From Catajapyx aquilonaris (lineage: Eukaryota), in assembly GCA_000934665.2 (NCBI GenBank), contig JYFJ02002918.1, positions 1 through 49,045 on the forward strand: 49,045 nt of DNA, given 5' to 3'. The notes beneath the pieces are model-generated. The model was not told the DNA's origin. It ran no database searches and worked only from the letters and a program-made list of their open reading frames with translations. Positions 13,750 to 45,821 of the stretch are shown here, one piece after another. How positions within the stretch are numbered: position 1 is the first letter of the stretch; every line of letters starts with the position of its first letter. The translations under genes were made by a program, and so were the position numbers.

Positions 13750-14521
13750 CTTGTACTGCGAACTCATAAAAACAACATTCATTATAGCTTTCAGTAATTT
13801 ACCTTATTTGACGGCATATAAGAAGCACTTTTCCACCCCCAAAAAATGACTGAAATGTTACTGTCGGCACAATTATCTTACCCTTGTTTGAGTGCGATGA
13901 AGTGAAAGCAAATATGACCGAGACCTACGATGAGTGAAAGAGAGAAGCAAGAGAGGAAAGGCAGTATCTTGCTGTTTCTTACTCCGGATGCAGATAAGGT
14001 TGGGTCATTAGGTGATGTAATCTTCACTTATCTAATTGGCGCAAGTGTGGCATGCTGATTATGAGCTATTCTGGTGTAATATTATTCCTGAATAACTTTG
14101 CCTTCACATGATAACATGGCTGCAATGTTCAGAACAAAAGGTCATAAACCTATGCTATGTCTAGCCAAAGCACACTTCTGCTTAAGTTTCCTCCATGGAA
14201 CTAGTGAACCCCCCTGCCCAAAACGGCCCTCCAGACAAGTAAACAGGTCCCTGGAAGTTTTTCCCCCTGTGACGTGATGGAGGAGGGCCATATGGGAGCT
14301 GTCATCAGGGTGTAAAGAGGAAGGGAACCCACCAAACATCAGCAGATATGTCCAGCTCTCACTTTGCCCAAAGTAAACAAAATTGCCCATCTGGTCGAAG
14401 TTAGTGTGATTAATTACAGTGGAATCCACGTGTAACAGCATCGGCTGTAACGGACTTTCGGTTATAACTGACGTTCTTTTCTGCGCTCCCTTGAAGTATG
14501 TTATATCCGGATTCAACTGTA

Positions 14522-18301: not shown

Positions 18302-21300
18302 TTATATGTGGAAGACGTTTCGTTTGGCGTATCCAGCTTGACCCTTGCGGACCACTGCTTTGGCCATTTCGTCTGTTGATAAAAAGTGCGTGAGAGATAT
18401 AACAATTATTATTATGCCATTATTTTCAATTCGTTAGCAAAAGCTGACCTTTCATCACGTGTAGAGAGTAGAGTGTGTTGAATTCCATGAGCTCTGCAAG
18501 TCGATTAAAGTCACGTTTGCTGTAGGTCATCTTGAATAGCGAATAAGGTGAGTTGGGGTCGCTGTACACTGAGAAGTCAGCATATTCTTTCTCGTCCTCT
18601 TGGCGACGGACGCCTGAGACAAACAAAAAATGCATCGGATATTCGCAATACCAGTATACGCGATGTTTCATAATGATTCCCACAAGCATCTAGACTGAAT
18701 CATTATATAACACACTCCTGTATCATGATCTACAACACAGTACGTACCCGGTGCTTTGTACTCCCGGAAAGCATTGTTGGCAATTGGCATGTGTATGATT
18801 GTAGGGCAGTTTGGATCCGTCGGATGCTCAAACACGTACCATTCCTTCACCTTTTTCTCAGCCACGTACTCCAACACTTTCTTTCTTATTGGCGGAAATC
18901 TGATGTTGTTCGCCTCAGCCCATTTCTCAGCCAAAAGCAGCTCCTAATTTTGACATGTATAGACCAATCAAGCGGTACTGATTGTTTGACAACAGAAGGT
19001 CTGACCTCAAATGGTGGAAAGTCGTCTCCAGGTCTGCTGCTAAACTCAAAGGAGAGGATCAGATCGACTGCTCGTTGTGGCCGTAGAAACAGAGGATATG
19101 GCGAGTTGAAGGCCAGACCTGCGTCGACCACGTACATTTTCTTTAGGTCCGGGTCTACTGGTTCGAAAATCCCTTTGAAGTCCACCTCTGTATATATGGA
19201 CAGCAATAATGAGTTCAAAGTTACGCTATATTTGGTGTTCCTTACGGTCAGTTGCAGTCGTCACCACTTCAGGGAGGTGGTCATCCTTAGCCTTATTGAG
19301 AGCGAGGCCTCTGAGTGGGTTGAAAACTGCTCCGGCTCGTAGTTCGCGACTGTCCAGAAAAGATGAGGACAGCAACTTGTTTTTCAGGGATTCGCCAAAG
19401 CTAGCCAACCTGCCCTTCTCTTCTTTCAGACACCCCTTCCTTTCAATTTAAAAAATATATTGCCAACCCATCATCATTTTTGATTACATGTCAATATGCA
19501 CTTACCTTTTTTCTCTGTACTGTTTCACTGGATCATTCCTCTTTGCTTTCTTCATGTTTGGCCCGCTGCAGCTGATTACCATGAAGCAATCGTTTGAATG
19601 GTCAGAGTTATTGTGGCAGTCGATTTCTCCATCGGAATTATCGGAATCGACGGGGACTGCGTCGTCAATGTCACCGTCGCCACCCTCAGGAGGAATGTCA
19701 CATGGAAAGAAGATTCATATGTACCATTAATTTCCCACAGTAAGTCAAATGTGACTCTGACCGTTCAGCATTTCAGATCTTCAAATACTACTCGTGTGTA
19801 GGTAAACACAACAACATGTGTTACAGGCTACCGTGTTTTCCATCATATGAGTTACATAACGTACATATCTCGTCATTTCTTATGCAACATGGATATACCG
19901 TTCGTTGGTTCACGGTGGCTGATTCACTTCCAAGCATTGCAATAAATAAATGATGACCAATCGAAGATATTGAGTTTTCACGTCATATTGTGGAACAAGC
20001 TTGCAGAAAAGCTCGGTACATTCCAGCTTCTTCAGGAAGTTGAAATACCGTCCTTTCATGTATGATGCGTGTAGCTCTGTGAAGTGACATCTCAGGTGCT
20101 AAAATGCTGATCACTTTTACCTGCTTCATTGCCTTGTTGCTAGCGCATGACGCGTCAGGTCGAATTCACACGAAAAAGGAGTGTGAAGAAGGAAGTGACC
20201 AGACGAAGTTCGTTTGGAATCTTCTGGAAGATGAACCAGTGGAGTGTCCTCTGGTTCTGCATCATGATGTCTCGGGAGAAGTTCCAGGACCTCTCGTGAC
20301 TCTGTTAACAAACGTGTCTCTTCTTGGACGACCTGTGCTTGTCTCCAAATCTAGCTCGGCCAGCAGCACTTGGAACTGCGATCCTGCAGAATCAACCTCA
20401 CGAACAGGTTTAGAACTGGATCCAAAGGAGGCTAAGTGTGCAGTGCATCTGGCGGTGGCATGTTCGTCCCATTACCAATATTTGATGGAGGAACTATTGG
20501 AGGAACGAGAGAATAATGTTCTGGTGATGAAAAGAACTAGAGACAAATTTGTCTTGTGGATGAGGGATCATATGGACCTCAATGTTCTTCTGGAGAAGCC
20601 ATTGTCGAAGATCAAGCAGAAAGTGATGATCGAAAGGGATTCGTTACTGATGGCCCATTCAGTGTGCTTTTTCTGCAAAGAAGGAAGCCCAACTGTGGAG
20701 TTGACCATGATACGGTCCGATGAAGTTTCCGACAAAGAAATATTTATTAAGGATACGTCCATCAACTTGCACAGAAAATTTATGAAATCTAAAAACGTAT
20801 TTGAGGAGAGTTACTTGGAATGCAATGAAACGTCCAGGAGCATTCAGTTATGTTTCTTGGGCAATGCTCTAAACTTCACCTGGCACATTTCTGAAGTAAA
20901 TTTAGCCTCTGTGTTTAGCAACATGTCTGCAGCAGTTCAATTTGTAGAGGACATAAACGAAGAAAGATTGAATTTTTTATCTGAATGTCCTGAATTAGAG
21001 TTGACCTATGCATTTGGCGAGATAATAGCGCCTTATTCGGATTTGAAAATGACATTCATGGTTCGGACTCCATTGTCCGAGAAAGAGAATACTTTCATAA
21101 TGTATTGTCCATTCACACTCGTCGCATGGTGTTTGATCGCTTCTTCATTATTAATTCAAGTGTCACTTTAGTAGTGCTTTCTAAGTCACATCCTCATGCA
21201 GATCCAGAACAAGGCCAGTTACTTCGAATCATTTAATTCGTACATGTATTATCTTGTGAAAGTATTTACGGAAGAATCCACTCCATTTCCTGGAGGTTCC

Positions 21301-24180
21301 GCGTCTAATGTCTTTGCAATGATCTGGATTTATTTTTCGATTCTTATTACCACAGTATACTGTTCCAAACTGTATACACTTTTCTGACTCTCCCACCGAG
21401 GGAGGATATCCCAGATACTTTTGTGAAATTGCGGATTTCCAGATTTTCCATTAAAATGTCAAAGGAGACTTACGATGTATTAGCTGGCAGTATTGTAGCG
21501 GATGAGAATGACCCTTATCAAAGGACGTTTGACAGAATAGAACCTGTAACAGACTGGGATGAGTGTTACAGGAACGTAGTCACTGAAGACAGTGTCTGCA
21601 TGGAAACGAGCAGATAGTTACAGAAATTGTTGAATGTTTTGGATGTGTATGGACAGGACGTTGCTTTCATATCCCACGATTACCTATAGCAGTTTTGTAC
21701 CATGCAGTTCTGGTTCCAAAAGGAGTGGTTTATTCGGAGAACTGGAACTACTGGTCCCACATCTTCTACAGCATCGGATTGAGCGAAAAAAAAGACGCAG
21801 GCTACTGGAGCACAGAAGAATGCTCAATTCTGCAGAGGCCAGAAGAAGAGACAAAATTGCTGAAGGAGACGAAGGAAGGCTGGTGGTGTTTTCACTGAAA
21901 AGGTTGCACGGCCATTTTCTTAGTCCTTCTCGTTGGATTGTGCCTTTCGATTACATGCTTTATCAGAGAGATTATTATACGTACATCACTGTCAACCAGT
22001 CTTTGCACGGCGACCTAAATAATCTATACAGTAGGCCTATAATATTATTGTTTAAAAAAAGCATGCTTATCCAGTGGGTGACAGCTAATGTATATTTCGT
22101 GCCATTTGTATATTTCCTCTGCATTCACACAACTGGCCCTAAAAGCACTCTTATAGTCCTTATGAAGTATATTTGCAAATTAATTTATAATGACGTATAT
22201 GGTTGCACATACGAAATGCACAATGATGTACAGTACAAGTGGAATGGTTTCCTTGCTTACATGACTGGGTTAGACTGCAATAAAATGATATTCAGCAAAA
22301 TATAGCAGGATTAATTTTGACCATTTTTCATGGCGATTTCCATGATTGTCCAAAACATCGCACCTTTTTAAATATCATAATTTTTAATCGAACAATTTGA
22401 CCACACTGACCTGCGTCTCTGAGGTTGGCTTCCTCCGATTGGTTGATAGCCTCTCGTGTCAGCAAGTACTTCCCTTGGTCCTGCAGGAGACGGACAAATC
22501 TTATGCAAAATGCGCTGCCCCACAGGCCCATCAAGTAGCTCAAAGGGCATTCGACCTGCTCCTTCAGGACATGACCCATGAAGAACTTTGACCCAAAGTC
22601 CTCCACTTTGAAGAACGCTCCGTACTTGACCATCCCGACCTCGTAAGGCGTGAATTCCATCCACTCCTGGAAGACACGAGCTGACACACTCTTCTTGACG
22701 TGAAGGCTGGCAAACAGGGGCAGAGGAGCATTGGCGTCCTTCACTGCCTTTTGCATCGAAGACAACTTGGACTTTTGTCTCTGTAAAGTGCACATGTTAA
22801 GTAAGTACTGCTGAGGTAAAATAATTGTCAACTTATTACTCCAGGTATGATAGTGTCAGCCACGAGGAATCCGAAGAAGTCTGTGAACGACACGGGCTGT
22901 CCATCCTTCTTCTTGGCAACAAACTTCCTCCACTTGTACAAGAACGAGTCGAAGCTGAGATACTTGGTCCATTCGATCCCAACGTTCTTCCTCAGCTCTT
23001 TTTGCAACTCTCCAGGACTCTTGGCTGGAAATTCACGGCTGGAGTACAGGTTGGAAAGGTACCTGCGAGTGTATATTATTATTTTGTTATTAACATGGAA
23101 GGTGCAGGAATGTTTTTGTTGGTATATTATAGTACCAGGTAGATCCTGAGATTGCTCCGACATAAGTGGCAGCATCCATCACTCCTGAATCATGAAGAGC
23201 TTTCATTACTCCGCTGAATGCACAAAGAGCTCTGAATCCGCCTCCGCTGCCCATTATGGCAACTACTGGAACCTGTAACAATATTAATGATGGGCCACGT
23301 TGTAATAAAACTGTTCACTATCCGAAATTTTGTTATGCACCTTTTGTACCTGATCTATGCTTTGAGGTCCTCTGTCCCCAAGAAGTTTCTTCATGGCTTC
23401 CAACACCTTCATGCCTCTCAGATGCAAGAACCGATCTTCTTTTTCACACAGATCTAAGCTGTACCGCATATCAGGACCATTGCTTTAAAAATATCGTAGT
23501 CAATTTTAGCATCAAACATAACTGTGATACAAGAATTTCAGGTAGCATAAAATAATCTTACCATTTCGTGACCAGAAGCTTCAAGTAAATTGTTGATCCC
23601 TGCAAGTAATTATATTGTAATTAAGCGTTGTTTTTTTTGCTCGTGTTGAGACATAATTACGTTGTCAAACACGATGGTCATGTCTCTTTCTTCTCCGGGC
23701 TGAAGCAATTGGAGCTGGATTTCTCTGGTTCCAATCCTGTCGTCGTCCCAGGTTCCAGGCAGGAGGTCATCATCCCACAAGCTGACCTCTGATCAAAGAT
23801 TGAGGAGGTTTTATTTTTTATTTTTTTTTGCTTACCCCATAAGATTGAGGAGGTCAAATTACGCAATCATTTGCACGTGCCGAATTAAGCCTACCCAACA
23901 GGTTGTCCTTTGAGGAATCGAAGTAAAAAGTAAACTCTTCATGCCACTCAGGGTTTACTGAGTTTGGAACCGATTCGGTGTACTTGGTTCCATTTGGAGT
24001 ACCCTTCACACGAAGAAGGACATACGGATCTGGTACATCAACTGCAAATGTACGAAAGGTATTGAACGTATAGACAATTGTATGACATCGATATGACTCA
24101 CCTTTGTCGCTGGCTCCGACTGTGACATTTTCGCCTCTAAGTACAACCACTTGCAGCACTGCGCATGAATCATGTTGGGC
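18302..24180 (-). CDS. Cytosolic phospholipase A2 group IV, paralog A (C2 plus catalytic domain); 5' end unresolved, possibly a recent pseudogene
   Basis: VDVPDPYV..NSVNPEWHEEF (C2), VPVVAIMGSGGGFRA, GAISGSTWYLS, PLPLFASLHVK, EWMEFTPYEVG, VVDAGLAFNSPYP.LRPQR and last exon DEMAKAVV...VFHI*. Confidence 0.88.
20104..22000 (+). pseudogene. Intronless divergent ionotropic receptor (IR) pseudogene nested antisense in a cPLA2-A intron
   Basis: Signal peptide, long ectodomain, M1 (PFTLVAWCLI), pore-like KVFTEES, TM W..FSILITTVYCSKL..FLT.P....PDTF..L and terminal FSLKRLHGHF + TM. In-frame TAG TAG at 21169-21174, TAG at 21615-21617, and several frameshifts (~21380, ~21700-21920). Confidence 0.72.
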
Positions 24181-25618: not shown

Positions 25619-28600
25619 TCATAACGTGGTGACCTCTCCTTCTTCTTCATCGTCCTCCGCGTCGTAAAAGACGTCCTCATCATCTTCAGGCAAACCTCCG
25701 CAGGCTCCGGCTCTGTTCCTGTTCTTCTTTACCCCTAACATGAACCTGTACGCAAACTTCTGCTTGAGAGCAGCCATTTCAGCTATCGTGACACCAGGTT
25801 TGGCGGCAGCCTGGTGCTTACGTTTCACTGCTTCGATCAGCTCCTCTGGAATATATAATATTGGTTATCAATCATATTCTCGAGTCCTCTCGAGATTTCC
25901 TCAAATAATATTATACCTTTGATGATGTCTACAGATAGAAGTGTGTTGAACTCCATGAGCTTAGCAAGTCTGTCGAAGGTCTCGGCAGGATAGTGAAAGT
26001 TGAAGAGAGAATATGGACTCTTGTCGCCAAAAACTGTGAAGTCAGCGAAAGCCTTTTCCTCCTCTGTCTCTCGAGGAACACCTGCAACAATACAATCATT
26101 GTTAGAGGTGTTGAACACCACTAGGCCTGGTCCAATACAAAATGGCGGAGCAGCCATCTTGTCGTGGACTCTTCCAGGCCTAGAGTATAGAGCTGACCTG
26201 GCGCTTTGAACCTGCGGAACTCGTTGTTGATGATGGCAAAGTGGATGATGACAGGGCAGAAAGGGTCAGTCGGATGCCTGAAGACGTACGCTTCCTTCAC
26301 CGGCTCCTTTGAGTACTGCTTTGCCTGCTCGCTGATTGGAGGGAAAGGAATGTGGTTGACCTGTGCCCAACGCTCGGCCAGAAGCAGCTCTTTGAATGGC
26401 GGAAGGTCATCTGAGGGTCTGGCGCTGTAGTCAAATGAGAGGAAGAGGTTGACCCCACGTTGAGGCCGAAGCAACAGAGGGTACGGAGAGTTGAAGGTAA
26501 GTCCACCGTCCACTATAAACAATTTCTTCGCATGAGGATCCAACGGCTCGTGATGTCCCTTGAAGTCAACCTCTGCAAATTGGACATAATAAGTCATTGG
26601 GTGTGTGACCATAAGAATCATACATACCATCAGTAGCGTTGGTTGGTGTGTCCGGACTGAATGGCGACAGTGGATACATTTGGGACAAAGACAATCCTCG
26701 AAGCGGGTTGAAGATAAGTCCTGCCCTTCCAGCTCGGGTGTCCAACATGGAGCTGGAGAAGAGCGATTCCACCACGGAGGATATCATACCACCTTTCTTC
26801 TCCTGCTTTGACTGCCGTTTGGTCCTCCTGCAACAACATTCTTTTGTCAGAAATGCGGTTTGCGCCATCACGATTTGAACCTCGGTCGTACGACCAGACG
26901 CCTGGTCGTGCGACCCAGGCTCAAATCGTGAGGGCGTAAACAGGCCTTTATGGTCGCATCTGACCTCCTCTCCTTCCAGAAGTTGGACTGGTTGCCAGCT
27001 CTACTTCGCACCAACGGCTTCCTCATCTTGTCCACTGCCATGGCAGCTGTCCTGAACGACAGAGCGGTTGGACATTTCGCGTTGTCCGTTTTGTCTCCTT
27101 CCTCATCGGACACCCTGTCCGGAGTGCTGTCGTCCGATGAGTGGGTGTCCACTTCGTCGTCGGAGCAGGACGAGTCTTCTCCCAGCTCCTCAGTCGCTCC
27201 CTTGGCTATACTCGCCTCTGTGATGACAAACAAAATTGTCAGAACTGTGTTCGAAACATGTTCTTTCGATGACGATGATGATGACATACCCAAGTCCCTG
27301 AGTGTGTCCTCTTCTTCCTGGTAGCCATCAGCTTTGGCTGCCTCCTTCCTCTCTTCCTCCGAGAGGCTGTCCCTCAGCATCTCTGCGATGTCTTTCCTCC
27401 CGCTCTCCTGGACCAATCGTTTGAACAGGATGCAGAAGGCGCTGCCCCAAACACCTTGCAGGTAATGAAGAGGGCTCTCCGCATAACCTCTGACCAACCG
27501 ACCCAGGAAGAACTTTGACCCGAAGTCCTGTGGACGCATGAAGGCTCCGTACTTTGCGATTCCGATGTCGTAAGGGTTGAACTCGATCCATTCCTGTGGA
27601 GTAATTAGCAATTAGATTTTTTTTTTCTTCCAAATATTCTAGTTAATAATGGCGCAGTTTAGGTGACTGACCTGGAAGACCCTGGCCGACACGTTCTTCT
27701 TGACGTGCAGGCACGTGAACAATGGGAAGGGCGCAGCTCCGTTGTCAATTACACGGTGCATGTCCGACAGTTTCGACTCTTGACGCTTGAAAAAAAATAG
27801 AATTGGTCAGGAAGTTCTCAGGAAAATGATTGACACTTTCTGGTTGACAAACAATACAACGCGTGCATTGAACTGGAAGGTGTGGTACCCGCCGCATGAA
27901 GCAATTGCGGAACAACAATGAGGACCCAATTTTCAGGTCGTCAGAATTGTCAACACAATTTTATGGGTAATGAGGCTTCGAACACCAATTGACATCATAA
28001 TTTATTCTTCTTATCCGCTTATTAACTCCGTCAGATGTTTGTCCGACCTGACAGTACTGCTATCACCCGCAAGGATTTGAGGGTGACAGTAGTGTGCAAA
28101 GTGGGAGGATGCGCCATCTATGACCGAAGTAAGGTACTAAATGGACAGTCCTTTGCTACTTACTCCTGGAAGAAGGGTGTCTCCAAGGAGACAGCCGAAG
28201 AAGTCAGTGAAGGAGACTGGCTGTCCGTTCATGCTCTTGTTGAGAAGCTTCTTTCCGTACCGGTAAAACCCTGTAGGAGACAGGTTGTACATCCAGTGCT
28301 TGCCCAGACACTCCCGGATTTCCTCCTGGATGTCTCCTGGACTTTTTGTCGGGAAATCCGGATGCGAGTATAGAGTCGACAGGTACCTGAAAAATTACAT
28401 TTCAGGCTGTACTTATAGAGCCAACTATCATATAGATTATTTTATATTACCAGGCTGATCCGGATAATCCAGCTGTGTAGACTACGGTGTCGAGTATCCC
28501 CGAATCTGCGAGGGCCTTCATGACCCCACTGAAGGCCGTGAGTGCCCTGAATCCTCCACCGCTTCCCAAGATGGCCACGATCGGAACCTGCTTCACTTGC

Positions 28601-31600
28601 TTGGGCGCCTTGTCCCCTAGAAGTTTCTTCATGCCCCAAAACACCTTCTTGCGTCGGTCACGCAGAAACTTCTTCTCTTGGTCGCACAGGGCCAGGCTGT
28701 ACCGGAGATCCGGATGCGTACTAAAAGAGAAAATTGTGTTATACTGTGCAGATATAATATTTCTTTGCCAGAGCAACATAGTCCATTGTTCCGACACCGG
28801 TAGCCTAGCCTCTAAAGACTTGCAACGTCGCAAAATTCAGCCGTATTGTTACCCCCTCAAGCGTAGTGTTGGAAACAATATGAGCGAACTGAGTTGCACA
28901 CTCTCGGTTGTGCTCAATTAAAAATTCATATATATACTGTAGGTACCAATCTTAACATTAATTAAGCCAAACAAAATGTACTCACTCTTTTGTTAAATGC
29001 AACCTCAGATGAACTTTAGATGCCTGGAAGAGATTTTTTTTAAAAATAATTTACATTAATATATAGCTGGTGTGAGACTTACTCCTTCGAAGACCAGAGT
29101 GTATTCTTTTTCCTCGTTGGACGGAACATTTTTAAGATTGATGTGCTCCTTTCCAATGAAGGTGTCGATGGTGTAGTTGGCATCCATCAGTGTCACCTCT
29201 GAAATATATTCCATTATCAGTTAGCACACTTTTATTATAGTACCGCACAGTCACTTAAACGAGTAAGGTAGCAGACCTGAAGCTGAAATTACTCTCTCTT
29301 TACCTCAAATTTCAGCTTCAGGTCTGCTACCGTACGCCTGTGACTATTTACATTGTCAACTCACCCAGGATGTTCTTGTGGTCTGGATCGAGGAAGAAAT
29401 TAAACGTCTCTTCCCATACCGGACTGACGCAGTTGTCGACGTGACGTGTCCTCTTCTTTCCGTTTGGAGTACCCGCAACGTGCAGGATGACGTATGGGTC
29501 TGGAGTGTCGACTGGATTGGCACAAAAAAATGGAGTACGAAAGTTAGCAACGGAATTTTATTTTCAGGGTAAATATTATATAGGTCACGAATTAAAAATA
29601 ACTTACAAAAGTCAGCACTTGCTCCTTTCGTCACATTTTCCCCTCGAGCAACGGTCACACGAAGTACTAGGCAGGATTCGTGAGACACCTGAAAATATCA
29701 TCATCATCATCATTGAATGTTAAACACGATTTGGTTGCTAATAATTAAATGGGTTTATAGTCCTTTTGGCTCTCAGCAGTAATTGCTTTGTGGGCTGTGA
29801 TAATACAGTATTGTTCTCTTAATTAACAAAGTCTTTACTGTAGGCATACTATGTCTTGGGTTCGTTTGCAGCCCTTTCCGTGCTAATTAAGAAGTGCAGT
29901 AAACATGCAGTGTTAATGACTTCATCTTCCGGCATAAGTTGTCGACAACCAAAAACAGTTATGAGACACATGTAACATGGCTATGACGTTAGTAGACTTA
30001 AAAAAGTGAACATGGCATCCAAAAATTAGCTAGAATAATTGATTAAAAAAATTGTGTACTCACCTCAAACATCTGAAAAGGATCGAAGCTGCGAACCAGA
30101 AAAAATGTAATTAGAGAAAGTTAACAACTGCAAATTAAGATGTCCTCGTCCTGTGGCAAAAATTAAGTACCGGCCGCTTTTCAGCAAGTATAATTAAACT
30201 GAATTTCTGTTTCAAACAGTCGGCACGTATAACAATTTCTCATGCAATTAGTGACATTGAAATATTTTACGCAATTAAATTTAATTTCTGAAATGCATAT
30301 AAGTTGTGCCACTGCCATTGTTGCGTGAGAAAGAAGCTCCCAAAACAAAAAAAAAAAAGCCACGTGCTTTTTCATGCAAGCGTGCAATAATTGTTATGTT
30401 CAGGCTGATATAATTACGTGATCCTACATGTGCACACCATTGCATCCCGCCATGTCTCGGTACAGATCGTCACGTTTTTGACGAGACGTGTAACTACTGC
30501 AGGAAGTTGCACCGCAAGACAGTGATAAGTAGGCCTAGTTCCCTTTCAAGGTCAGCTAGTGACCTATTATAATAGCTTCCAAGTTTAGGAAGAAGGATGT
30601 TTAGGATAAAAAAACTTCCTCGTTAATATTTTTCCTCAAGCCCAGTTAACAAAATTTGGCAACACACTGCCCCCTCGGGACTGTGGACGTAGTACCATAT
30701 CTCTGACAGAGATGACGGTGCAGTCTGATGACTCACCGCGGACAAAGAGATGCACATACCCAAGTCGATTATATATCAGACTAGTATAGTGAACTCGTTG
30801 CCAAAATTTGGCAAAACTTGTATTAATCAGTACGACAATCATTTTAATGAGATGGTCCGCCGAATTACCACGTAGTTCTATTCTTCCCGGAAATATGGCG
30901 CTCGGCGCATACTCCTGCACACTCCTGCCATCATCAGGTCGTGCGAGAGATAGCGGTACTATCAGGTCGGACAAACATCCGACGGAGGTGAACCCGTTGC
31001 CAAAAATTATAATCATCTGATATGAAATATTTGTAGTACTCTTCTTCACGCAGAGATGGCGAATTCTCCCTCTGCACACTCCTGCCACTTTCAAGTGGTG
31101 CGAGAGAGTAGAAACACGGACAAACAAACGGAAAGAGAGAACAAGCCGATTAGGTATATTGATTTTAGTGGAATTAAGTGCTGTAAATGGGATTTTTGAA
31201 ACATTTCGTTTTAAAGCAGTGCGTTTCACACAACAAACGACCATGCAAAAGTTGACCACATGCAGACTTGTTATCCTTTACCAACATCATGCTGCAAAAT
31301 ATTTTTGTGTGCAAAATATGTATTGATGTTCAACCTGTCGAGGTCCCAAAGGGCGCTTCCTGCCCTGGATAGCCATCCCCATTCGTATAGTCCCGATGGC
31401 GTCTTGGGGTTCTTCCTTGGAGCGTTGGGGTCCCTGACCTTGGACGCCTCGTTCTCCAGGACTGCCCTCTGAAGGTCAAGGGCAGGAGGCCCAAGACCTC
31501 TGCCTCCTCGACCCCTCCCCATTGGAGGAGCCAGGCGACGACGATTCAGGAGACCTGCCATTGGAGGCGGTGCTGACGTCGGGGACGACGGCGGCGACGA

Positions 31601-31630
31601 CCTCTCAGTGTCGTCTGGGGTTCTTGTCAT
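25619..31630 (-). CDS. PLA2G4A: Cytosolic phospholipase A2 alpha-like (PLA2G4A-like), paralog B, apparently intact; probable first exon 31630-31335, micro-exon 30088-30064
   Basis: FDPFQMFEVSH, DTPDPYV, EVTLMDANY (C2 Ca2+ ligands), PDLRYSLALCDQEK, GSGGGFRA, AGLSGSAWYLSTLYSHPDFP, EWIEFNPY, YPLSP and IVDGGLTFNSPYP motifs follow cPLA2-alpha in order. The splice phases checked are consistent. Confidence 0.92.
29267..29330. repeat. Short intronic inverted repeat (24 bp arms)
   Basis: ggtagcagacctgaagctgaaatt ... aatttcagcttcaggtctgctacc. Confidence 0.85.
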
Positions 31631-34600: not shown

Positions 34601-37600
34601 TATTGCAAACGATGCACTTTTTTGTGTACACCACCTGCCATAATTTTGCGTATAAACAGACACTCCCCTTTTTTTGTCAATTAACCCTTAGGGCTGGATT
34701 AACAATGTTTACGATGGTTTTTTCCCCCCTTGTGTAATTTGTTGAAGACTAGACCTACCTCAAAAAAATGACATTATGTGACGCCTTTTTGCAGTTAAAG
34801 TCATCAATGAGAATTTACAAATTTTGCAAAATAAATTGTAATGTAGCGACACAATAATTATTACAGGGATCGAAATATTCGGATGCAATAATTTGCACTC
34901 CAAAATTATTATATGCACTCTAAAGTGACCAATCGGTGGCCAGGAAATACGTGGTACAATTATTATGTAATTTGAAAAGCGGCGTCATATTTTGTTCATT
35001 TCACCAATAATTGCCTGCTGAGTAGACCGGATTACGTCAACTTACGTCGGCATGTCTTCGTCGTCGTCGTCGTCACCCTTGTTCTTTTCGACACTCGAGG
35101 TATCCTGCTTCTTATTTCGTCTGATGAAAGCGGACAGCTCGGCCGGAAATAATTTTCGGCGCCACCCTGTAGATGAATAGGTCACTTTTAAAAAAAATCA
35201 CCGAATTAACAACCCTATAATTAAGCTCATTACGTTTAAGAACTCCTGGTTGGCTACTCATTTTTGGATAATTGATATTATCGAAGCGATTTCCAATATT
35301 GCAAGGGTGATGCAGCCCGGGTTGCAACTTAAACAATGGTTAGTAAGAGAGTAAAAGTCTTGAGACATTGCGAGAAAAATGAATTTATTATTGGTCGAGA
35401 ATTTTTCTTTTCAAGTTCGAATGAGTTGCTCTGAAACTATTGGTCAGACGATAGTTAACTTAACTAGGGTGACCCCCTCGAGACCCTTTGTCACGCTGAT
35501 TATTTCATTTCACGGGATTCTAACTCGACTATATTCTCTGTGAGCGGAAGTTGTAACTAATTCAGCCGGAAAAAGGCCATCATAATAAGAGGAAACTTCA
35601 AAGTTGTAAAAAAATGTACTATAAGCTATAACTAATTTGAACGAAATTAGTTTTTTTTAAAAAATTAATGGAGAGAGAGAGAGGAAAAACTCTGGCTGCA
35701 CTACAGTTCTGGCTGAACATTTTCGAGGAATGCAACATCGGGTGAGCACGAGGGTAAGATATTTACCGGGGGCCGTAAACCAGTGGTTTTAAGGTATATT
35801 ATAGTTGAGCCTATGGGATATTGTTAGGTACGGACTAGCTTTATGGAGGTATTTAATCAGGTACGTGTATGGCGGATTGGTCATACTGCAATATTTCAGG
35901 ATAAGTAGACGAAAGTGAGTGTTTCAGAATAAATTAATGAGATTGCTTAGGTTCTTATGTAACAAAGGGGGGGGGGATCTTTTAAACGCAGCTAGATGTA
36001 AGAGCAGCTATGGCCAGTCACCGGTGACCAATTTTGCTTTCATGGATGACTGATAGTTTTAATAGGATGGCGCTTATTCTGTGGGGAAAAAAATGCTGCA
36101 ATTGCTGTTTTGCCTTATTTATTTATTTCTACAGAATATGATTGTGCATAAAATATTGCATACATTTGTTCGGCCCATTCCCGAGTTATTCTGTATATTT
36201 AGAACTTTTTAGTCGTTTAGAATCCATAAGCAAGCCTATTTATAAAATCTAATGGAAAAATTAATGAAATAACCATTTTCCATGACTTATGAAGGTATGA
36301 AAATTACTCTGACAAAGTTCTCTTCTTCAGTTAAAACTCTCAGGGAAGTACACAATATGAACGACTATGTCATTCTCAAAATGACTATTGTAGTACTGTA
36401 CCAATATTTTCTTACTTTATAACATCCGTACTAATTTCACGAGATAAATAATCGTAATTACCGTTCGACACATTAATAAACAAACTGGAGCACCTGAAAT
36501 GTACACAGAGTCGCACTGATGTGATTTTGAAAAAGCGAATATTGCTTTACGCCAATATTTGAGACACTTCCTTACATTTTTCTAGGTACAGAGGACTGGG
36601 ATTATCCCATCAGAAAACTCATTTGTATGTAAGTAAGTACGTACATGTCAAGGACGATTATCCAATACCCCCCGATACCCACATCAATTTATAGAACAAA
36701 ACATGACTCTCCTGTGCAAATCAGGTCTTCATTTATACAAGGTATATAACCCAACCAATTTTAATGAGCTATTGCTCATCCAATTGTAGCCAAATAAAGT
36801 CACTGCTCCATTTCCCTGTCCAACAAGAGGACTTACCAGGTTTTCTACGAGTGTTTTTGTCCCCATCGCACTGATCTACACCCATCTCTGACTTGGAAGC
36901 GGTAATATTATTCAAGGTGCTTGATTGTGTATGATCTGAGGTCGGACGGACCCAACCACCTTTCCTAGAAACTACTCGTGCACTGAATTTGCCAACAGGA
37001 AATTCATGCCCGGTCTCTGCACAATAATTGGGTGTGGTCTCGCAAAGGGTCCATTCAGAGGATTCAATGACCACCGTCTACGTCATCACCTGGTATTTCC
37101 CCTGTTCCCGAAGTGGGGGGAAAAAACCAGAAAATTTTTAGAGCCCCTGGACTTACGTGACGTCAATCAGGTTTTGCAGATTTACGAGGGCGGCCCGCCA
37201 AACAAAAAAAATTTGCGAGAAAAAAAATTAGTGGTCTCTCGCTCCTGGGTTTTGGACTGCCGAAAGCTGCAAGGTCGTCACAACTGAAATGATTGCGAAG
37301 CATGTGTACAGGTGGGTACAGAGTTGGAATAATTGTATGTCATAAAAGCACATATTCATGCACACAATCATATGCTGGAAGAGCATGCGATTCTCATGTT
37401 ATAACTTTAGCACACATAGAGTCAGAAAATATTTTAGCAAATATTATCAGACTGGTTGACACATGTGAAAAAAAGAGTCAATAGTTCATAAATTACTCGA
37501 ATATATGTGGGCTTATTTCAAACACTTGCCGTTATCTATGAGTTGATAAAAAGTTGCATAAGTAAAAAATACACAACGGACTTTGTAATGTTCTATCGTT

Positions 37601-37649
37601 TGTTGTTATCGCTTGGAATGCTACACTTGTTGGGGAGTCGATATAACAT

Positions 37650-37902
37650 CTGATTTGCATGAATTCCAAATCAATTAACGATAAATCAGCCGTGTTTGTT
37701 AAAACTGTGACTAATATTAATCCTGGTAATTCCATCAGGCATGGTTAAAATGTTCCGTCCAAAGTTCAATTACCCAGCTGATTTGCATGAATTCCAAATT
37801 AATAAATGATAAATCAGCCTTGTTTGTTAAAACTGTTGCTAATATTAATCCTGGTAATTCCATCAAGGCATGGTTAAAATTTTCCCTTCCAAAGTTCAAT
37901 TA
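37650..37902. repeat. Tandem duplication, 2 x ~125 bp
   Basis: ctgatttgcatgaattccaaat...ccaaagttcaatta occurs twice in direct orientation. Confidence 0.85.
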
Positions 37903-38138
37903 TACCCGTCAGCCTCAGGTATCTAGAAGGCAATAGGATAGGTCAGCAACTTTACTTCTGGCTTTGTAGCCTGCGCAGTTCAATATACAAGATGTAAACA
38001 GAGTGTTTGTCCTGTAGGAGTCACCTCTCCAGACGAACTGAAACTATATTATTAACCTGTGTACTGCACGTAAAAATGCGGACAGACCAGTTGTGCAAGT
38101 AATTATGAATGGAAATAAGGGAAAAAAAAATTTGACCA

Positions 38139-38711
38139 GGGAATGCCCTGACGACGTCCGGGGGAATTTTCCATCAAATTTAACTGTGCTGTGGCCCACT
38201 TTTTTTATACGACTTTGTTTCAATCAGCGTCATGATGTTACTTGTGATGTAAAAATAGTTTTCGGGTATTCCCGGAATGTCCGCATCTTTAATGTTGGGC
38301 TTGGAGTATCACAAGTCTTGCATAGAATATGACAAGTTATGTAAACAAAGGTGGAACCAGATTTCCTTGTAACCATCACGACCTGACCGGTTTGTAAGGC
38401 TAAGTTTTGGGTATTTTCCAGGAAGACCTTTGAATCCGTCTATATGTGATTCATCTTGGACGAAATGATCGTCGTAATAAATATAATTTTAAAACAAATT
38501 TCGAGACCAAAATTATTTGTCCGATCAGAGAATCTCCACCTTGCACATGTTAGTGCAATATATTTATGTTGAATTTCAGCTCTAAGTATTGTGTCCTCCT
38601 CGAGTCTTCCGGCACACCCTTTTCTTCTTCGTAAGGTGAGCTACGTAATAAAAAAAAGTCATCGCAAGTCATTCGTCAAACACAGCTCTTCAAACTGCCA
38701 GGGGAATTTCC
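38139..38711. promoter_or_regulatory. Candidate enhancer: cluster of NF-kB-like and STAT-like sites
   Basis: GGGAATGCCC 38139, GGGGAATTTTCC 38161, GGGTATTCCC 38264 overlapping TTCCCGGAA 38269, GGGTATTTTCC 38409 overlapping TTCCAGGAA 38416, and GGGGAATTTCC 38701. Confidence 0.5.
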
Positions 38712-39603
38712 GTCTGGCCATCAAATTCTTGTGCAGTGTGAATCCGTCACGGAAAAGGTTCACGTGTCAATAATAATAATAAATGGTTGGGAGAGAAAGA
38801 GTTGTGAAACTTTATATTGCAGGTTTGCTGCTTTGGCCCTGAGATTTAGGATACCGTTATCACAGAGAGCTATCCTTGACCATTTTTGTCACTTTTTCAG
38901 CGTGTGAGTGATGTAACGACGTGCCTGTCAATTCCGGCATGCAATTTGCCAATTCGAAATGTATGATAGGAATATCCATATACTTTTCACATAGCTCAAG
39001 TATGTTGAAAAAAAATGGGCAAATCTTAAAGTGCTTAAATTTAGACTTCTCCGGAAAGATCTGGTCAAGTTTGACGTCACAGCAGGTTGGAATATCCCGC
39101 AGGTCAAGTGGGCGAAATGTCCACACATAATTCCAACATTGCATCAACTTTCTTAGGGGATGAGAAGCAATAAGGTGAACTCATTACTCAAATCCGTCAA
39201 ATTGTTTGCCAGTCATGATTAATGAACCATGCCCCGAATTTTTAATATAGACCTTGCTGTATACATATATGTGACACAATTGTAACGAATTGCTCCATTG
39301 TTATTGTTCCTCGAATTACAATCCGTGTAGCAGGTCAATTCAGGTATGTATTTCCCCCCTCCCCTCCCCCTGCAAACTTCCGCTCTGATTGCATAAATCA
39401 GGAAGAGGGTCAATTCCGTGGGGGGGGGAAAAAATTGTCGGCAAGGAAGGAAAATTCATAACACGTAATTCATAACAGGATATGAGGGTGTCGCGCTCTC
39501 ACATATTGTATCCCCGCTGGTATGACAAAATAAAACATGTGAACTACATGTAAGTTAGACTATTATTTTTTTAAAAAAAATCTCTTCGCTATAGCATTTT
39601 TCC

Positions 39604-39682
39604 AGTCCTCCACCACTGCAGACCGCAGGCCTAGAAAAACAAGTGGCTTTCTAGTCCTGCGGCCTGCGGTGGTGGAGGACAT
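39604..39682. repeat. Short palindromic element; one arm recurs at ~40790-40820
   Basis: gtcctccaccactgcagaccgcaggcctagaaa ... tttctagtcctgcggcctgcggtggtggaggac. Confidence 0.75.
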
Positions 39683-39713
39683 GGTGTTAATTGCCGTTCC
39701 CCATCTACAGTAT

Positions 39714-39860
39714 CAAGGGGGTAATTACTCGACTGAAAAGTGTACACTGGAGTACCAAATTCAAGGAGTACCACGGAGTAATAAAGAGTGAGGTACCTGA
39801 GGAGTACCAGGGAGTACCAGCCCAGGTGTACACCGGAGTACCGAAGTGATTACCCCCTTG
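39714..39860. mobile_element. Small MITE-like element with internal GGAGTACC repeats
   Basis: TIR-like caagggggtaattact / agtgattacccccttg flanking about six ggagta(cc) units. Confidence 0.6.
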
Positions 39861-40222
39861 TACAGTATAGTCGAAGGACATTCTATAAAATGCACTTCTG
39901 GAACCTCCCACTTTTCAAGTCTTTCCATTGGAAATGACCTCAACAATGTGAGTAAATAGTGTCAACGAAAGGACACCGTTGGCATTCTTGTGTTATAGGG
40001 GGGCTAATAGGGTGCAAGTATATATTGTGCCCGGAAGCACCTTTTTTTTATGCGTCCGTACGAAACGGAAACCATACGGAAGATATGACCGCCATATATG
40101 CACATTTCCCTCCTACAAAAATGACCAGTTGAAAGTGTCAACATTGGGACGGGAAGTACGTCATAGGTTGATTTTTCTTTAAAACCTGTGGTAGTTTCTA
40201 GAGATGGCTAAGAGGGCCAGTA

Positions 40223-40420
40223 GGGGGCTTCCCCTTTACCTTCCGGCCAACCCTTTTGCTTCACTAAGCCATGGGTGTTAGTTAGTGGCATGCTGTGTGA
40301 GCGAGAGGCCTTGTACACGTATAAGAGAAGTGGGCCCCAGAGCCAGCCTCATCACTCGCAGGTGGACCACGAAGGACGTCACTTACACACATTCACACAC
40401 TGGAGCTTCTCACAACCACA
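40223..40420 (+). promoter_or_regulatory. Putative COX core promoter and non-coding first exon
   Basis: kB-like GGGGGCTTCCCC (40223-40234), TATAAGA (~40320), Inr-like TCACTC ~30 nt downstream, and donor GTGAGT at 40421. The COX ATG sits 3 nt after an acceptor (cctcctcag, 41270), which implies an upstream UTR exon. Confidence 0.45.
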
Positions 40421-41273
40421 GTGAGTACTATTAGTGCTATTGAAGTGCACAAACTGTCATTTGTAAATAACAGAGCAATTGTTGTTGAGATTGTTGACTG
40501 GAGCTGTCTTTGAAACGTGCAAAGTTTGTCCCATTTTTGTTCAGATGCCCCTTGGCTTATTCTTCGAAATTTGAACGACGTTGATAGCCATACAAGTTGG
40601 AAAGGACCTGACATAATACTTTGTTATGTAACACTTTGTAATCACTCAACGCCGCAAACGGTTCAAAAGAATATTCAGGCTATGCTAATTAATATTTGGC
40701 GCAACATACAATCTATAATATTCAAATCGTAGTGGGCATGTATGTGCACGCCTTCTTATTGGCCTGCCGCACATTGTTACCCAATATGGCGTCCACCACC
40801 GCAGGCCGCAGGACTAGAAAAAAGCTAGCGAAGCGAGGGTTATTCTACAGTTTACTTCTTGTTGGTTCAACGTGTGATTTCAAGGGAAGAAAATTTTGTG
40901 TTTCGCATCAATTTGCAGGTTTTTAGCCGCTGTAACTAATAATGGTGTCATCAGTATTAGCTGGTTATAACAGCTGGATGGGTGTATGTGTCTTCTGGCA
41001 GGTACGAAGGTCACAAGCACGTGCTTAAGTTGTTTAAAAAAATGTACGCAGCAAGTAGTGGCCTTCAATCCAGTTTCGTTGACTTAAAGACGGCGTAGGT
41101 GCACAAAAAAAATGCAAAAAAAAAGGTTCGAACCCGCCACTTATAAGCAGCTAAACTCCGTATAGTGTAATGTGTGCTGCACACAAACATTGTCATTCAC
41201 GAAACAACGACGCTACGTGAATAAAAAGGACCTTGACTAAATAACCAAGTTGAGTCCGTTTCCTCCTCAGGAA

Positions 41274-44200
41274 ATGCATCTCACCACATTCCTGATTGCA
41301 GCCTCCGCCATAATCGCATCCACCTGCGTACAAGGTAAGAGCTTAATCAAGCAGCTCATTAGTCAGCAATTAACCAGCTATTTAAAATTTTTTGCAGGTT
41401 ACAACCCATGCTGCTCATACCCTTGTCAGAATTTAGCGATATGCGTGCCCAGTGGGACTGATAGCTACAAGTGTGATTGTACAGGACTCAATTACTTTGG
41501 AACTAATTGCGAAAAGCGTAAGTATAATTAGACTATTAATTATTCAGGGGGTAGATTCATTCAATGAGTCACTCAATATTCCCTCATTGTCTAAATATAC
41601 GAGTTTAAGTTGTTTACCACTTTTCAATTTGTAGGGCTCGGAAGAAAAACATGTGAACATGTTTTCTCCATAATAATTCACTTTGATGTTCACAGAGCAG
41701 TGAATTAAAATGAAATGTTCTGTTATCTCTCTCTCTCCGACAGCGACGTTCGTTCAAAGCATCGTCGACTGGTTCAAGATCCCGCCGGACACAATGCACA
41801 TTATCATCACGGGGTACTCTTGGCTCTGGGGTATCGTAAACAGGATACCTTTCCTTCAGAAGAGTGTCATGCAATACATCTACCTCTGTGAGTCTATATC
41901 GGTCTATATTCAAATAATCAGGGAAACCATATTGAATTATGATGTCGGCATTGTTGTATCAGGAAGCATATACTACATAAGAGGCGCAAACATTCGATTT
42001 CCGCGTCTCTCTGCTTGGGGCCGTTGCCAAGGCTGGCGGCCATCTTGAATTGTGGGGAACGCCAACGAGGTATAAATAGGGTACAGGCAAAAATAGGGTC
42101 CCCATCTTTGATTCACGCGCGTTCTTGCCGTGTAGTTGCCATGGCCGCCAAAACCATCAAAGATGGCGGATCCTATTTTTGCCTGTACCCTATTTATACC
42201 TCGTTGGCGTTCCCCACCCTTCAAGATGGCCGCCAGCCTTGGCAACGGCCCCAAACAGAGAGACGCGGAAATCGAATGTTTGCGCCTCTTATGTAGTATA
42301 TGCTCCCTGGTCGTACTCTGGTATGTTGCTAATACTTTGCATGTTTCTTACGCAGCTAGAGGAGCGATGATAGACACACCTAGTCTGTACGAATCAGATC
42401 ATGAGTACATAACGATGGACGCATATTACAACACGTCGTACTACTCTCGGACGTTACCACCGGTGCCTAAAGACTGCCCGACACCTACAGGAATACATGG
42501 TGAGTCCCCAGAAACGTGGAGCAAATTTTTAAATGAAAAATAGTAATGAGGAAGTATAGTTGACTTAATTACATTTCGGCCATGCTCCATTGGGCGGTTA
42601 ACTGAATCGGTCCATGATTCCTGTAGTACCATTGTTCCAGAAAAAAATAGGCTACTTTTTTTTATTACGCCACGAATGTGCTCGTTAAAATTGCGCAACT
42701 TCTAACACATTTCTGAAATTGAAATCAATAAATAAAACGAATCGACTCTCGCGGTAATAACTCGGTTTTAAGATCCATTGCAGCATCGTACGCTCTCAAT
42801 TCATGACACAGGCTCTGCATGCCCACATTTATAGGGGATTTTGTTTTTAAAAAATTAAAAATTCAATTGTTTACCCCCAGCAACCGATTTACAGTGAAGC
42901 TACTCAATTGTTGCTCATCCTGCATACCCGGTTTCTAGGGCAAACAATCCCCATGAGCAGGCTGGCTAACAGCGAAGGCCGCATAGTTTTTACAGCCATT
43001 GGATAATTATTATGCAAATTTGGTTCGCTCCTAATATATGTTTTCTTCAAAGGTCAGAAAGCATGAGAAAGCCATAATATTACTTTACGTAATTAATTAA
43101 TATTTTCAATCGGCACCTTGCTTTCACCCAGACCCAGAGTGAGTTGCAATATTTAGCTGTGGAGGCAGAGCTGAAACGAATAGTGGCAGGCGTCGCTAAT
43201 TTACTGATCGATGTCAATTTTCACGGCTGTCTAAAGTAAATGTCGCAACTTGGACATTAACTATACGACCTTTTTTTCTTTTCTTCGAAATACCAACCCA
43301 GGCCCGGAACAATTTCCTCCAGCAAAGGAGGTGGTACGAAGGCTGTTTCGAAGAAAGAAGTTCATCCCTGACAAGCATGGCACCAACGTGCTCTTCGCAG
43401 CCTTCGCCCAACACTTCAGCCACCAGTTCTTCAGGACAGACTTCAAGAAAGGACCAGCTTTCACTTTGGGATCAGAAGGGGTATTAATCATTCCAAAAAT
43501 CTACAGTTCGTTGTATGTATAAGCATTCTGATTGGTCCGTCGCATATTGTTACCCCGACAATTCCGATTGGCCCGCGTTCTACGCATGCGCAATGGGTGG
43601 AGGCAGCGCCTCTACGGTGGGTGGGAAGAACAATCCATTCGATCGCTGTGGGGGTCAGAGGGTCTACTTCGCTCTCCATCCCTGTATTGTCGGCCAGTTG
43701 GAACCACTGTCAGGTTGTTGACAGTCAGTAAATAACAGTTCATTCTTGGAATGTCAGGGCGTGTTCTGATAACCGGCATGTTCGAAGACCAAAGCGACTA
43801 ACAATATACCTGCATGGCATACCCATTAGAATAGGGTCTGTATCCGCTGAAGATAGGGCTGTATCCGCAAGAAAGGAAGGTTAGGTTATGTTGGTACAGC
43901 CTACCCTTTAGAATAGGGTCTGTATCCGCTGAAGATAGGCAGTATCCGCAAGGAAGGAAGGTTAGGATAGGCTAGGTTATGTTGGTACAGCCTACCTCCT
44001 AGAATATGGTCTGTATCCGCTAAAGACAGGGCTGTATCCGCAAGGAAGGAAGATTAGGTTATGTTGGTACAGCCTACCCCTTATAATAGGGGCTATATCC
44101 GCTGAAGATAGGCAGTATCCGCAAGGAAGGAAGGTTAGGATAGGTTATTAGGTTATGTTAGTACAGCATACCCTTTAGGATAGGGGCGGTATACGCTGAA

Positions 44201-45821
44201 GAGAGGGCTGTATCCGCAAGGAAGGTTAGGTTAGATTATGTTGGTACAGCCTACCCCTTAGAATAGAGGCATCACCGAAGCTAGTGAAGTGAGGGCTTTT
44301 CTAGAACAGTCTTATTAAAATCTTACTAGTATTTCCGTATTATGTTTGTCCGAGCTGATAGTACCACTTTCCCTCGCACGATCTTAAGTGGCAGCACTGT
44401 GCAAAGAGGGAGGTTGCGCCATCTGTGAGAGGCGTTTTCTTAAATGGCTTCTTCCTCATGACCTCCTTGCAGATCGACATGAGTCAGGTGTACGGAGGAG
44501 ACGAGGAGAGTCGTCGCTCGTTACGTTCTTACGTGGACGGAAAGCTGAAGACTCACACGGTGAACGGAGAAGAGTTTCCTCCACTGACTGACCAGGCACC
44601 ACAGGCCACGATGAGGTACCCTCCAGGTACGGGTCAAAAGTTCGCCCTGGGCAACTCCCACTTCGGGATGCTGCCCTGGCTCCTGGCCCTGGGCACCATT
44701 TGGATCAGGGAACACAACAGGGTCTGCGACGTACTCAAGGAGGACAACCCAACTTGGGACGACGAGAGGCTCTACCAGACGGCCAGGATCATACTAGCAG
44801 GTCGGTATATCCCTCACACAAATGGCGCACACTCTGGACAAACAACCGAATTCTACAAAAAAAAAATTAATTAATATTTTTAGGCGAGACAATGAAGATC
44901 GTGGTGGAGGACTATGTGCAGCATTTGAGCCAGTATAACTTCCGTCTGACCTTCGAACCCGAACTGACCCACGGACAGGTGTTCCAGTACTCCAATAGGA
45001 TCCGGGTAGAGTTCTCTCAGCTTTACCATTGGCATCCGTTTGTTCCTGATGTCCTCAAGATTGCAGACAAGGAGTACACGCTGAACCAGACCGTCTTTTC
45101 CACCAAGCCTCTGATGGAACATGGTCTGGACAATTTCATATATTCCATCGTCAATCAACGGGCTGGATCGGTAAGTCTGTTTGATTACACACATTAATGC
45201 CTTACTAAAATTATATCATTTATTTTTACGCAGATGACGTACCATAATCACGCTCCAGAACTGGAGAATATTCTGGAAACAACTTTGTTGCAAGGAAGGC
45301 AGGTCAGGTTACAGTCGTTCAACAATTATTTGCGCCGATTTGGCAGCACCCCTTACAGGTCATTCTATGACCTCACGGGTGACACCGAAACTTCAAAGGT
45401 GCTGGAGGAACTCTATGGACACATAGAGGCGCTGGAGTTCTATCCTGGTTAGTATCAGGTGGTGTGTTTCATATAATTATAGTTATAGGTTGTATCCACT
45501 CTATCGTATCATTCATCTTTTCCAGGTCTTTTGCTGGAAAAATCGGGGACCTCTGTGGTGTCGAGGTCAATGGTGAATATCGGAGGACCTTATTCGGTCA
45601 AAGGTCTTGTGGCCAACCCAATATGCAGTCCTGGTTGGTGGAAACCTTCAACATTCGGAGGGGAGCGAGGATTCCAGATAGTGAACACAGCATCGATTCG
45701 AAAGCTAATTTGCCAAAATTTGGCATCAAGATGTAAGGGACAGTACGTCGCATTTTCTGTCCCGGACAGTCCTCCTTGGTGGGTCAGTCATAATGAGATT
45801 CTAGGAAAGGACGAGCTCTGA
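41274..45821 (+). CDS. PTGS: Cyclooxygenase / prostaglandin G/H synthase (exons 41274-41334, 41398-41517, 41744-41887, 42356-42499, 43302-43480, 44473-44800, 44884-45170, 45234-45447, 45526-45821)
   Basis: Signal peptide, EGF domain NPCCSYPCQN, membrane-binding helices, YYSRTLPPVP.DCPTP, FAQHFSHQFF, IWIREHNRVCD, EDYVQHLS.Y, LYHWHP (catalytic Tyr and proximal His), GGPYSVKG (Ser530 equivalent), NPICSP.WWKPSTFGG and C-terminal KDEL. All introns are GT-AG. Confidence 0.97.
41960..42309. mobile_element. Palindromic MITE (~350 bp, ~145 bp arms) in COX intron 3
   Basis: caggaagcatatactacataagaggcgc...ccatctttgat is near-perfectly complementary to atcaaagatgg...gcgcctcttatgtagtatatgctccctg. Confidence 0.9.
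43820..44265. repeat. Minisatellite, ~5 x 80-95 bp with GGTTA/TTAGG motifs, in COX intron 5
   Basis: Repeated tagaatagggtctgtatccgctgaagatagg...gtatccgcaaggaaggaaggttaggttatgttggtacagcctacc. Confidence 0.9.

Follow-up and report, generated by a model that had tools for sequence, protein, structure and literature searches.

Layout of the locus and the gene models

The window, by which we mean the whole 49,045-nucleotide (nt) contig JYFJ02002918.1 of Catajapyx aquilonaris (arthropod DNA, ~42% G+C, with no N anywhere in it), contains two genes coding for cytosolic phospholipases A2 (cPLA2-A and cPLA2-B) on the minus strand and, divergently oriented on the plus strand, a complete gene coding for a cyclooxygenase (COX; prostaglandin H [PGH] synthase). 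This arrangement had been proposed from the sequence alone in an earlier note, and it is upheld by Pfam matches, tblastn searches and spliced models. C2 and PLA2_B (lysophospholipase catalytic) domains were detected in minus-strand frames of 18.4-24.2 kilobases (kb) and 25.8-29.7 kb, and An_peroxidase and EGF domains in plus-strand frames at 41.2-45.8 kb; likewise, tblastn with a query set of eight cPLA2 and four COX proteins recovered two full series of cPLA2 blocks (18441-24177 and 25849-29694) and a single series of COX blocks (41292-45776). The gene models were obtained by enumerating frame-keeping GT/GC-AG junctions and then scoring them against relatives. The resulting layout is:

18426..24180, minus strand: cPLA2-A, the apparent divergent tandem copy
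25619..31644, minus strand: cPLA2-B, the predicted alpha-like copy
31645..41273: intergenic stretch between the divergent genes
41274..45821, plus strand: COX (PGH synthase) gene, eight exons

In agreement with the earlier description, no recognizable gene was found between the divergent genes: the three longest intergenic frames, all of them tested, contain no Pfam family, and the window as a whole has no Rfam or tRNA match.

The model of cPLA2-B comprises the following exons, all on the minus strand:

31644 (at least)-31335: leader exon from an RNA contig of run X5 (see below), with an in-frame ATG at 31382
29688-29607, 29511-29365, 29198-29083, ~28888-28827: four C2-domain exons
28720-28451, 28386-28164, 27785-27672, 27593-27290: splice model
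453 nt within 27289-26573: linker exon(s), boundaries open, with 84 splice combinations that fit
26572-26198, 26081-25917, 25845-25619 (stop): the last being an extra 3′ exon

X5 is a public sequencing run that is not on record as RNA, and we treated it as transcript-derived because its contigs skip predicted introns. Its contig 25 (2956 nt) maps to 26196-26572, 27290-27592, 28448-28720 and 31335-31644, and the sums of the predicted cPLA2-B exons agree with it exactly for 335 nt, give 453 nt for the linker, and come to 407 versus 408 nt. A loose contig end at 25917 matches, when read on the opposite strand, the beginning of the 25845 exon. The reading frame that leads into the C2 domain opens at ATG 31382, which places the two start codons 9,892 bp apart (31382 in cPLA2-B to 41274 in COX). 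The ~9.6 kb that had been quoted between start codons is thus correct for the distance from the known 5′ end of cPLA2-B (31644) to the COX ATG but not for that from ATG to ATG. A cPLA2-B start at ATG 31630 would fit the quoted figure, but the RNA-supported splice 31335>29688 puts it in a different frame from exon 2, and it was discarded. That ATG instead opens a separate upstream frame in the leader:

31383..31630, minus strand: upstream ATG in the cPLA2-B leader (sequence and frames), with ATG 31630 in another frame than the main one

The upstream frame is Pro/Arg/Gly-rich, spans ~105 codons when spliced, runs across the main ATG and ends in exon 2, seven codons past the same splice. The X5 transcript carries a 3-nt CGA insertion at 31594, inside this frame.

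The cPLA2-B product has the domain order C2 followed by PLA2_B, as judged from Pfam on the exon frames and from the spliced model. An alignment to human cPLA2-alpha (PDB: 1CJY) showed that it keeps Arg200, Ser228 in a G-L-S-G-S motif and Asp549, and that its YPLSP motif aligns to residues 501-505, the Ser505-Pro motif of the MAP kinase site. In all four exon searches with the cPLA2 frames, 1CJY scored above cPLA2-delta (146/54, 111/74, 103/49 and 70/38 bits). By these bit scores and the aligned motif cPLA2-B is putatively alpha-like; the cPLA2 tree described below was built without beta, epsilon, zeta and gamma group IV sequences.

For cPLA2-A, 12 coding exons were resolved (exon 2 begins at 24180), and every intron listed among them is GT-AG:

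24180-24102, 24041-23895, 23788-23661, 23599-23562, 23482-23350, 23272-23136, minus strand: resolved
23062-22840, 22780-22470, 19439-19246, 19187-19006, 18943-18748, 18613-18426, minus strand: resolved

Splice-site modeling of the region did not find the first coding exon with the ATG, and likeness to the C-terminal exon of cPLA2-B did not find its counterpart (best score 32); the model is uncertain in the linker and at the C-terminal end. The intron positions of the two genes differ, with cPLA2-A having an extra one at 23350/23272 and cPLA2-B one at 27672/27593. The cPLA2-A product keeps GGGFR and the Ser and Asp, with A-I-S-G-S as its lipase motif in place of the G-L-S-G-S of 1CJY; the PLSP motif is absent from the linker of the model, which is itself uncertain.

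The COX gene has seven introns, all GT-AG, and codes for 611 residues in one open frame from the ATG at 41274 to the stop at 45819-45821:

41274-41517, 41744-41887, 42356-42499, 43302-43480, plus strand: exons 1-4, splice model
44473-44800, 44884-45170, 45234-45447, 45526-45821, plus strand: exons 5-8, splice model

The acceptors of exons 3 and 4 (42356 and 43302) were chosen despite slightly lower scores, because they preserve Ser-Arg at the Arg120 site and give a length like that of relatives. X5 contig 27 (2276 nt) maps to 44472-44798, 44882-45169 and 45525-45849, and the 214 nt absent from its placement are exactly the length of exon 7. As contigs 25 and 27 skip introns and fit the exon lengths, transcription and splicing of cPLA2-B and COX follow the models.

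The COX product begins with a hydrophobic stretch that could serve as a signal peptide, followed by an EGF domain, a catalytic domain and a C-terminal KDEL; it thus unites the animal heme peroxidase fold and EGF domain (Pfam) with a putative N-terminal signal (from the N-terminus of the model). In PDB searches a COX frame matched COX-1 and COX-2 at 114 and 108 bits, versus 43 for myeloperoxidase or alpha-dioxygenase, so that it groups with the cyclooxygenases rather than with other peroxidases, and the tree agrees. Residues were mapped pairwise through orangutan COX-2 in ovine numbering. All nine named key residues are retained (R120, Q203, H207, V349, Y355, Y385, H388, S530 and G533), as are F381, L384 and W387; overall 13 of 15 mapped positions are identical, the two exceptions being S opposite R513 and N opposite E524. 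By this numbering we take His207 and His388 to be the heme ligands, Tyr385 the radical residue, Arg120 and Tyr355 the substrate-binding pair, and Ser530 the aspirin site.

Relationships of the enzymes and their neighborhood in other animals

A cPLA2 tree was built from 48 rows, namely the two window models and 46 of the 120 listed matches, picked by taxon, with most fish isoforms and several decapods omitted. In it cPLA2-A and cPLA2-B are sisters (SH-like approximate likelihood ratio test [SH-aLRT] 95) within an arthropod clade (99), near a cockroach and malacostracan crustaceans (84). They share 56% identity, versus at most 54% to any other protein compared. The two appear to be products of a lineage-specific tandem duplication, since they are sisters and closer to each other than to the other proteins; with a branch length of 1.02 versus 0.37 for cPLA2-B, cPLA2-A is apparently the fast-evolving sister copy. 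The molluscan sequences fall into two cPLA2 clades, of which that of ~765-residue proteins includes the COX neighbor of Haliotis. Separately, a 1709-residue model from the prawn Palaemon matches the C-terminal half of cPLA2 twice (~812-1070 and 1369-1627), which points to duplication in tandem or to fusion in the gene model.

In the COX tree (34 rows), the window COX joins insect COX-like proteins, the amphipod Caprella and the prawn Macrobrachium in a clade (SH-aLRT 99) that lies outside the split between vertebrate COX-1 and COX-2. Its identity is 50% to the Caprella protein and 51% to those of Haliotis and Patella; among the proteins compared no whole-protein relative exceeds ~52% identity, and one COX exon searched against 1.84 billion representatives found none above ~60%. 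Some insects thus carry relatives of COX, since a dragonfly (Ladona), a firefly (Aquatica) and a stick insect (Timema) have annotated COX-like proteins.

Linkage in other animals was read from protein accession numbers and shared contigs, not from gene coordinates or strands. This recovered 13 non-vertebrate annotation sets with COX and cPLA2 on one contig; the accessions lie 1-15 apart in 12 of these and 1-4 apart in 10:

Branchiostoma floridae: accessions 1 apart
B. belcheri RefSeq: accessions 1 apart, on one 1.33-Mb scaffold
B. floridae x belcheri hybrid: accessions 1 apart
B. lanceolatum: accessions 2 apart; the two records carry the names PTGS2 and PLA2G4A
B. floridae x japonicum hybrid: accessions 2 apart, with the cPLA2 number between two COX copies
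Haliotis rubra: accessions 1 apart, on one 1.8-Mb scaffold
H. cracherodii: accessions 2 apart
H. rufescens: accessions 3 apart
H. asinina: accessions 4 apart
Owenia fusiformis (annelid): accessions 4 apart
B. belcheri GenBank set: accessions 7 apart
Patella vulgata: accessions 15 apart
Pinctada imbricata: accessions 916 apart, on the same chromosome but far apart

Fishes served as controls for this reading. Three of the four species listed for both genes have them on a shared contig (Chanos, Clarias and Umbra, not Esox), with locus tags 4 steps apart in Umbra, RefSeq numbers 19 apart in Clarias and numbers 508 apart in Chanos. In light of these controls, close accession numbers are good evidence of neighborhood, while distant ones are weak counter-evidence. 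By this proxy, orthologs in both protostomes and deuterostomes are adjacent (12 of the 13 sets, in addition to the window). The earlier note had named adjacency restricted to this lineage as one outcome that would speak against it; we found instead that COX and cPLA2 are neighbors by accession in amphioxus, Haliotis, Patella vulgata and Owenia.

Certain apparent cases of separation dissolved on closer comparison. Branchiostoma lanceolatum, a candidate for the unlinked state, was ruled out as another COX copy adjoins its PLA2G4A, and Gigantopelta, Solemya, Saccostrea, Littorina and Aplysia were set aside since their listed cPLA2 belongs to the other paralog clade. The cPLA2 proteins of Candidula, Elysia and Babylonia lie outside the tree sampling, and these genera were not counted as unlinked.

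Other features of the window

Beyond the enzyme genes, the window contains further genes and frames, and repeats within the COX introns:

4354-4884, minus strand: Janus/Ocnus (phosphohistidine-phosphatase-like) gene (Pfam)
5343-6499, plus strand: TruB-family pseudouridine synthase gene (Pfam)
8364-13803, minus strand: LOTUS and Tudor domain gene (Pfam)
20083..21171, plus strand: nested open frame of 362 codons, on the opposite strand in the 3-kb cPLA2-A intron
41960..42309: foldback repeat in COX intron 2, with 142-nt arms, 96% complementary, very high-copy
43800..44225: minisatellite in COX intron 4, five copies of ~77-94 nt each

The Janus/Ocnus, TruB-like and LOTUS/Tudor genes lie upstream of cPLA2-A. 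In PDB searches the TruB-like frame matched TRUB1 weakly (E 5e-4), and the LOTUS frame matched nothing. We place the human relatives of the three genes on 9q and 1q, in the vicinity of PTGS1 and PTGS2; as a lead, the flanking genes hint at a wider conserved linkage with these paralogous human regions. The nested frame has no Pfam match, and its nearest ESM Atlas clusters are arthropod Lig_chan-Glu_bd/ionotropic receptors (score 0.91, with 164 of 256 features in common); it is possibly an ionotropic-receptor-like gene, which we mention as a lead. It is followed on the plus strand by further open frames up to 22305.

Within the intergenic stretch, a high-copy repeat at ~39190-39860 has a DNA word depth of 23,000-29,000, versus ~30-40 elsewhere; that of the intron 2 foldback repeat is ~40,000-50,000, and short-read contigs break at both repeats. 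A low-depth X5 contig (320 nt) also maps to the intergenic stretch at 34317-34635 and could be a repeat, a non-coding RNA or an untranslated exon. X5 contig depths cannot rank genes, and intergenic parts without X5 cover are uninformative on expression.

Origin and retention of the pair

From the domain content, the products of the locus may be predicted to act in succession. The calcium-binding C2 domain of cPLA2-B, and perhaps also that of cPLA2-A, would recruit the enzyme to membranes; cleavage at the sn-2 position by its Ser/Asp lipase domain would set free arachidonate or eicosapentaenoate; and the neighboring heme cyclooxygenase, presumably retained in the endoplasmic reticulum, would convert the freed fatty acid to prostaglandins G2 and H2 (PGG2/PGH2). 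The head-to-head cPLA2-COX pair would be the same pair as vertebrate PLA2G4A-PTGS2, descended from that of the bilaterian ancestor, and would most likely have been retained via one regulatory neighborhood common to both genes. For this account as a whole, namely a two-step prostaglandin locus, an ancestral pair and its retention through one regulatory neighborhood, our confidence is evenly divided. The description of the locus as a compact metabolic cluster in the earlier note was overstated: it holds genes for two consecutive steps and a tandem copy, with no further prostaglandin-pathway gene in the window. If such a cluster is taken to mean at least three non-homologous, co-regulated genes of a pathway, the window offers two enzyme families, its other genes being unrelated to the pathway.

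Several observations weigh against the account. Accession proximity is a mere proxy for gene order, as the 508 numbers between the Chanos genes on one contig illustrate. COX and cPLA2 lie on different chromosomes in the prawn Macrobrachium nipponense and in the snails Biomphalaria and Bradybaena; in Physella, which we counted as unlinked, they lie on different small scaffolds. In the tree the cPLA2 proteins of these three snails fall in the clade that includes the COX-linked gene of Haliotis. The transcript evidence comes from one transcript-like run, and the stretch mapped with its contigs excludes cPLA2-A. A spacing of 9.6 kb is far above the scale of bidirectional promoters. Finally, since short-read contigs break at repeats, the evidence that joins the cPLA2 genes to COX is the assembly itself. 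The DNA runs X1-X3, from a single sample, are possibly the reads it was built from; their contigs end at high-copy repeats (30963-31978, 39677-39940, 41987-42284 and 43097-44205), with no listed contig spanning the whole stretch; the genes might thus have been misjoined across the repeats at 39677-39940 and 41987-42284. We regard such an artifact as extremely improbable: the window has no N, the X1-X3 contigs cover all 30 bins, a single unique 7.7-kb contig spans 31978-39677, and it is very unlikely that precisely these two genes were misjoined by chance when other phyla have the same neighborhood.

A real neighborhood could still have arisen by independent rearrangement in this arthropod lineage and in others, and so not be homologous to the vertebrate pair. 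Macrobrachium nipponense, with its separated genes, is the sole other arthropod with data, and no second arthropod with the linkage was found among the annotation sets compared. However, convergence would require that the same two families became neighbors independently in at least four phyla, and the cPLA2 genes of the window appear to be a local duplication inside the arthropod clade rather than imports; we consider it quite improbable. As chordates, molluscs, annelids and this arthropod share the neighborhood, and repeated convergence would be far less economical, the COX-cPLA2 adjacency was very probably inherited from the bilaterian ancestor, with several later losses. Because it is not confined to this lineage, an origin before the bilaterian split is the most economical reading. 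The earlier claim that the pair predates the divergence of protostomes and deuterostomes is strongly, if indirectly, backed by the accession and contig proxy in several phyla, while the pair is broken in the prawn and some snails.

Why the ancestral pair has stayed together is a separate question. Its genes may simply be old neighbors that slowly rearranging genomes have yet to separate, for no selective or regulatory reason: the adjacency is found in amphioxus, Owenia and vetigastropods, the genomes of which we take to rearrange slowly, the prawn and heterobranch snails have lost the linkage while keeping both genes, and the intergenic distance is not promoter-like. Against this, the pair has been kept in four phyla, including vertebrates after their genome duplications and an arthropod, and its orientation is divergent here and in human. 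One study describes human PLA2G4A as a neighbor of PACERR/PTGS2, with regulatory contacts and coupling in human cells (PMC13679678), suggesting contacts between both loci, and Irimia et al. (2012) report that divergent 5′-5′ orientation is enriched among conserved pairs and tied to co-regulation (PMC3514665). It is on account of the divergent arrangement and these human contacts that we favor regulatory constraint, to which we assign about an even chance of explaining the retention; a purely neutral relic seems to us appreciably less probable. The shared inducible regulation put forward in the earlier note draws on work in humans and on theory of a general kind. More tentatively, one may envisage an urbilaterian two-gene eicosanoid module, held head-to-head for >500 million years in one shared inducible regulatory domain, of which PLA2G4A-PACERR-PTGS2 would be the descendant, a possibility we rather doubt as stated in full.

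It is uncommon in animal genomes for genes of a single pathway to stay together. If the adjacency runs from arthropods to humans, it would provide a clear natural case for testing whether shared regulation maintains gene order, and the regulatory coupling of human PLA2G4A and PTGS2 may be an ancient trait and not one that vertebrates introduced; were the urbilaterian module real, it would be among very few pathway-ordered gene pairs of animals preserved by co-regulation. The locus would also furnish an anchor, by synteny, with which true COX and cPLA2-alpha orthologs could be recognized in invertebrates, which matters because invertebrate eicosanoid biology is debated and, to our knowledge, many insects lack canonical COX.

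Among known systems, the closest is the human PLA2G4A-PTGS2 locus, which we take to lie on 1q31 in divergent orientation at a spacing of roughly 150 kb. Like the locus described here, it unites neighboring genes of the same two enzyme families for consecutive steps, and human cPLA2-alpha has the Ser505-Pro motif and catalytic residues in common with cPLA2-B. Unlike it, the window has a spacing of 9.6 kb, two tandem cPLA2 copies and a single COX that is a pre-duplication relative of COX-1 and COX-2; the human locus further has the antisense long non-coding RNA PACERR, a counterpart of which is not among the features identified in the window. The crustacean COX of Caprella belongs to the same clade as the window COX at the 50% identity noted above, the latter ending in KDEL. 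Plant and fungal metabolic gene clusters are similar in that linked genes code for consecutive steps of one pathway but differ in that only two steps are linked here, with no further pathway genes in 49 kb.

We found no report of cPLA2-COX linkage outside vertebrates in the literature covered, which did not extend to the supplementary tables of one microsynteny survey; the available parts of PMC13644484 and PMC2483973 give no gene positions, and the main text of PMC3514665, apart from its supplementary pair table, has no mention of a cPLA2-COX pair (0 occurrences). The pairs of Irimia et al. (PMC3514665) nevertheless resemble the present one in being non-homologous 5′-5′ neighbors apparently kept across phyla, while pairs with bidirectional promoters differ from it in that the spacing in the window is much larger. 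We accordingly view this locus as a further case of a deeply conserved neighbor pair rather than as a new kind of system.

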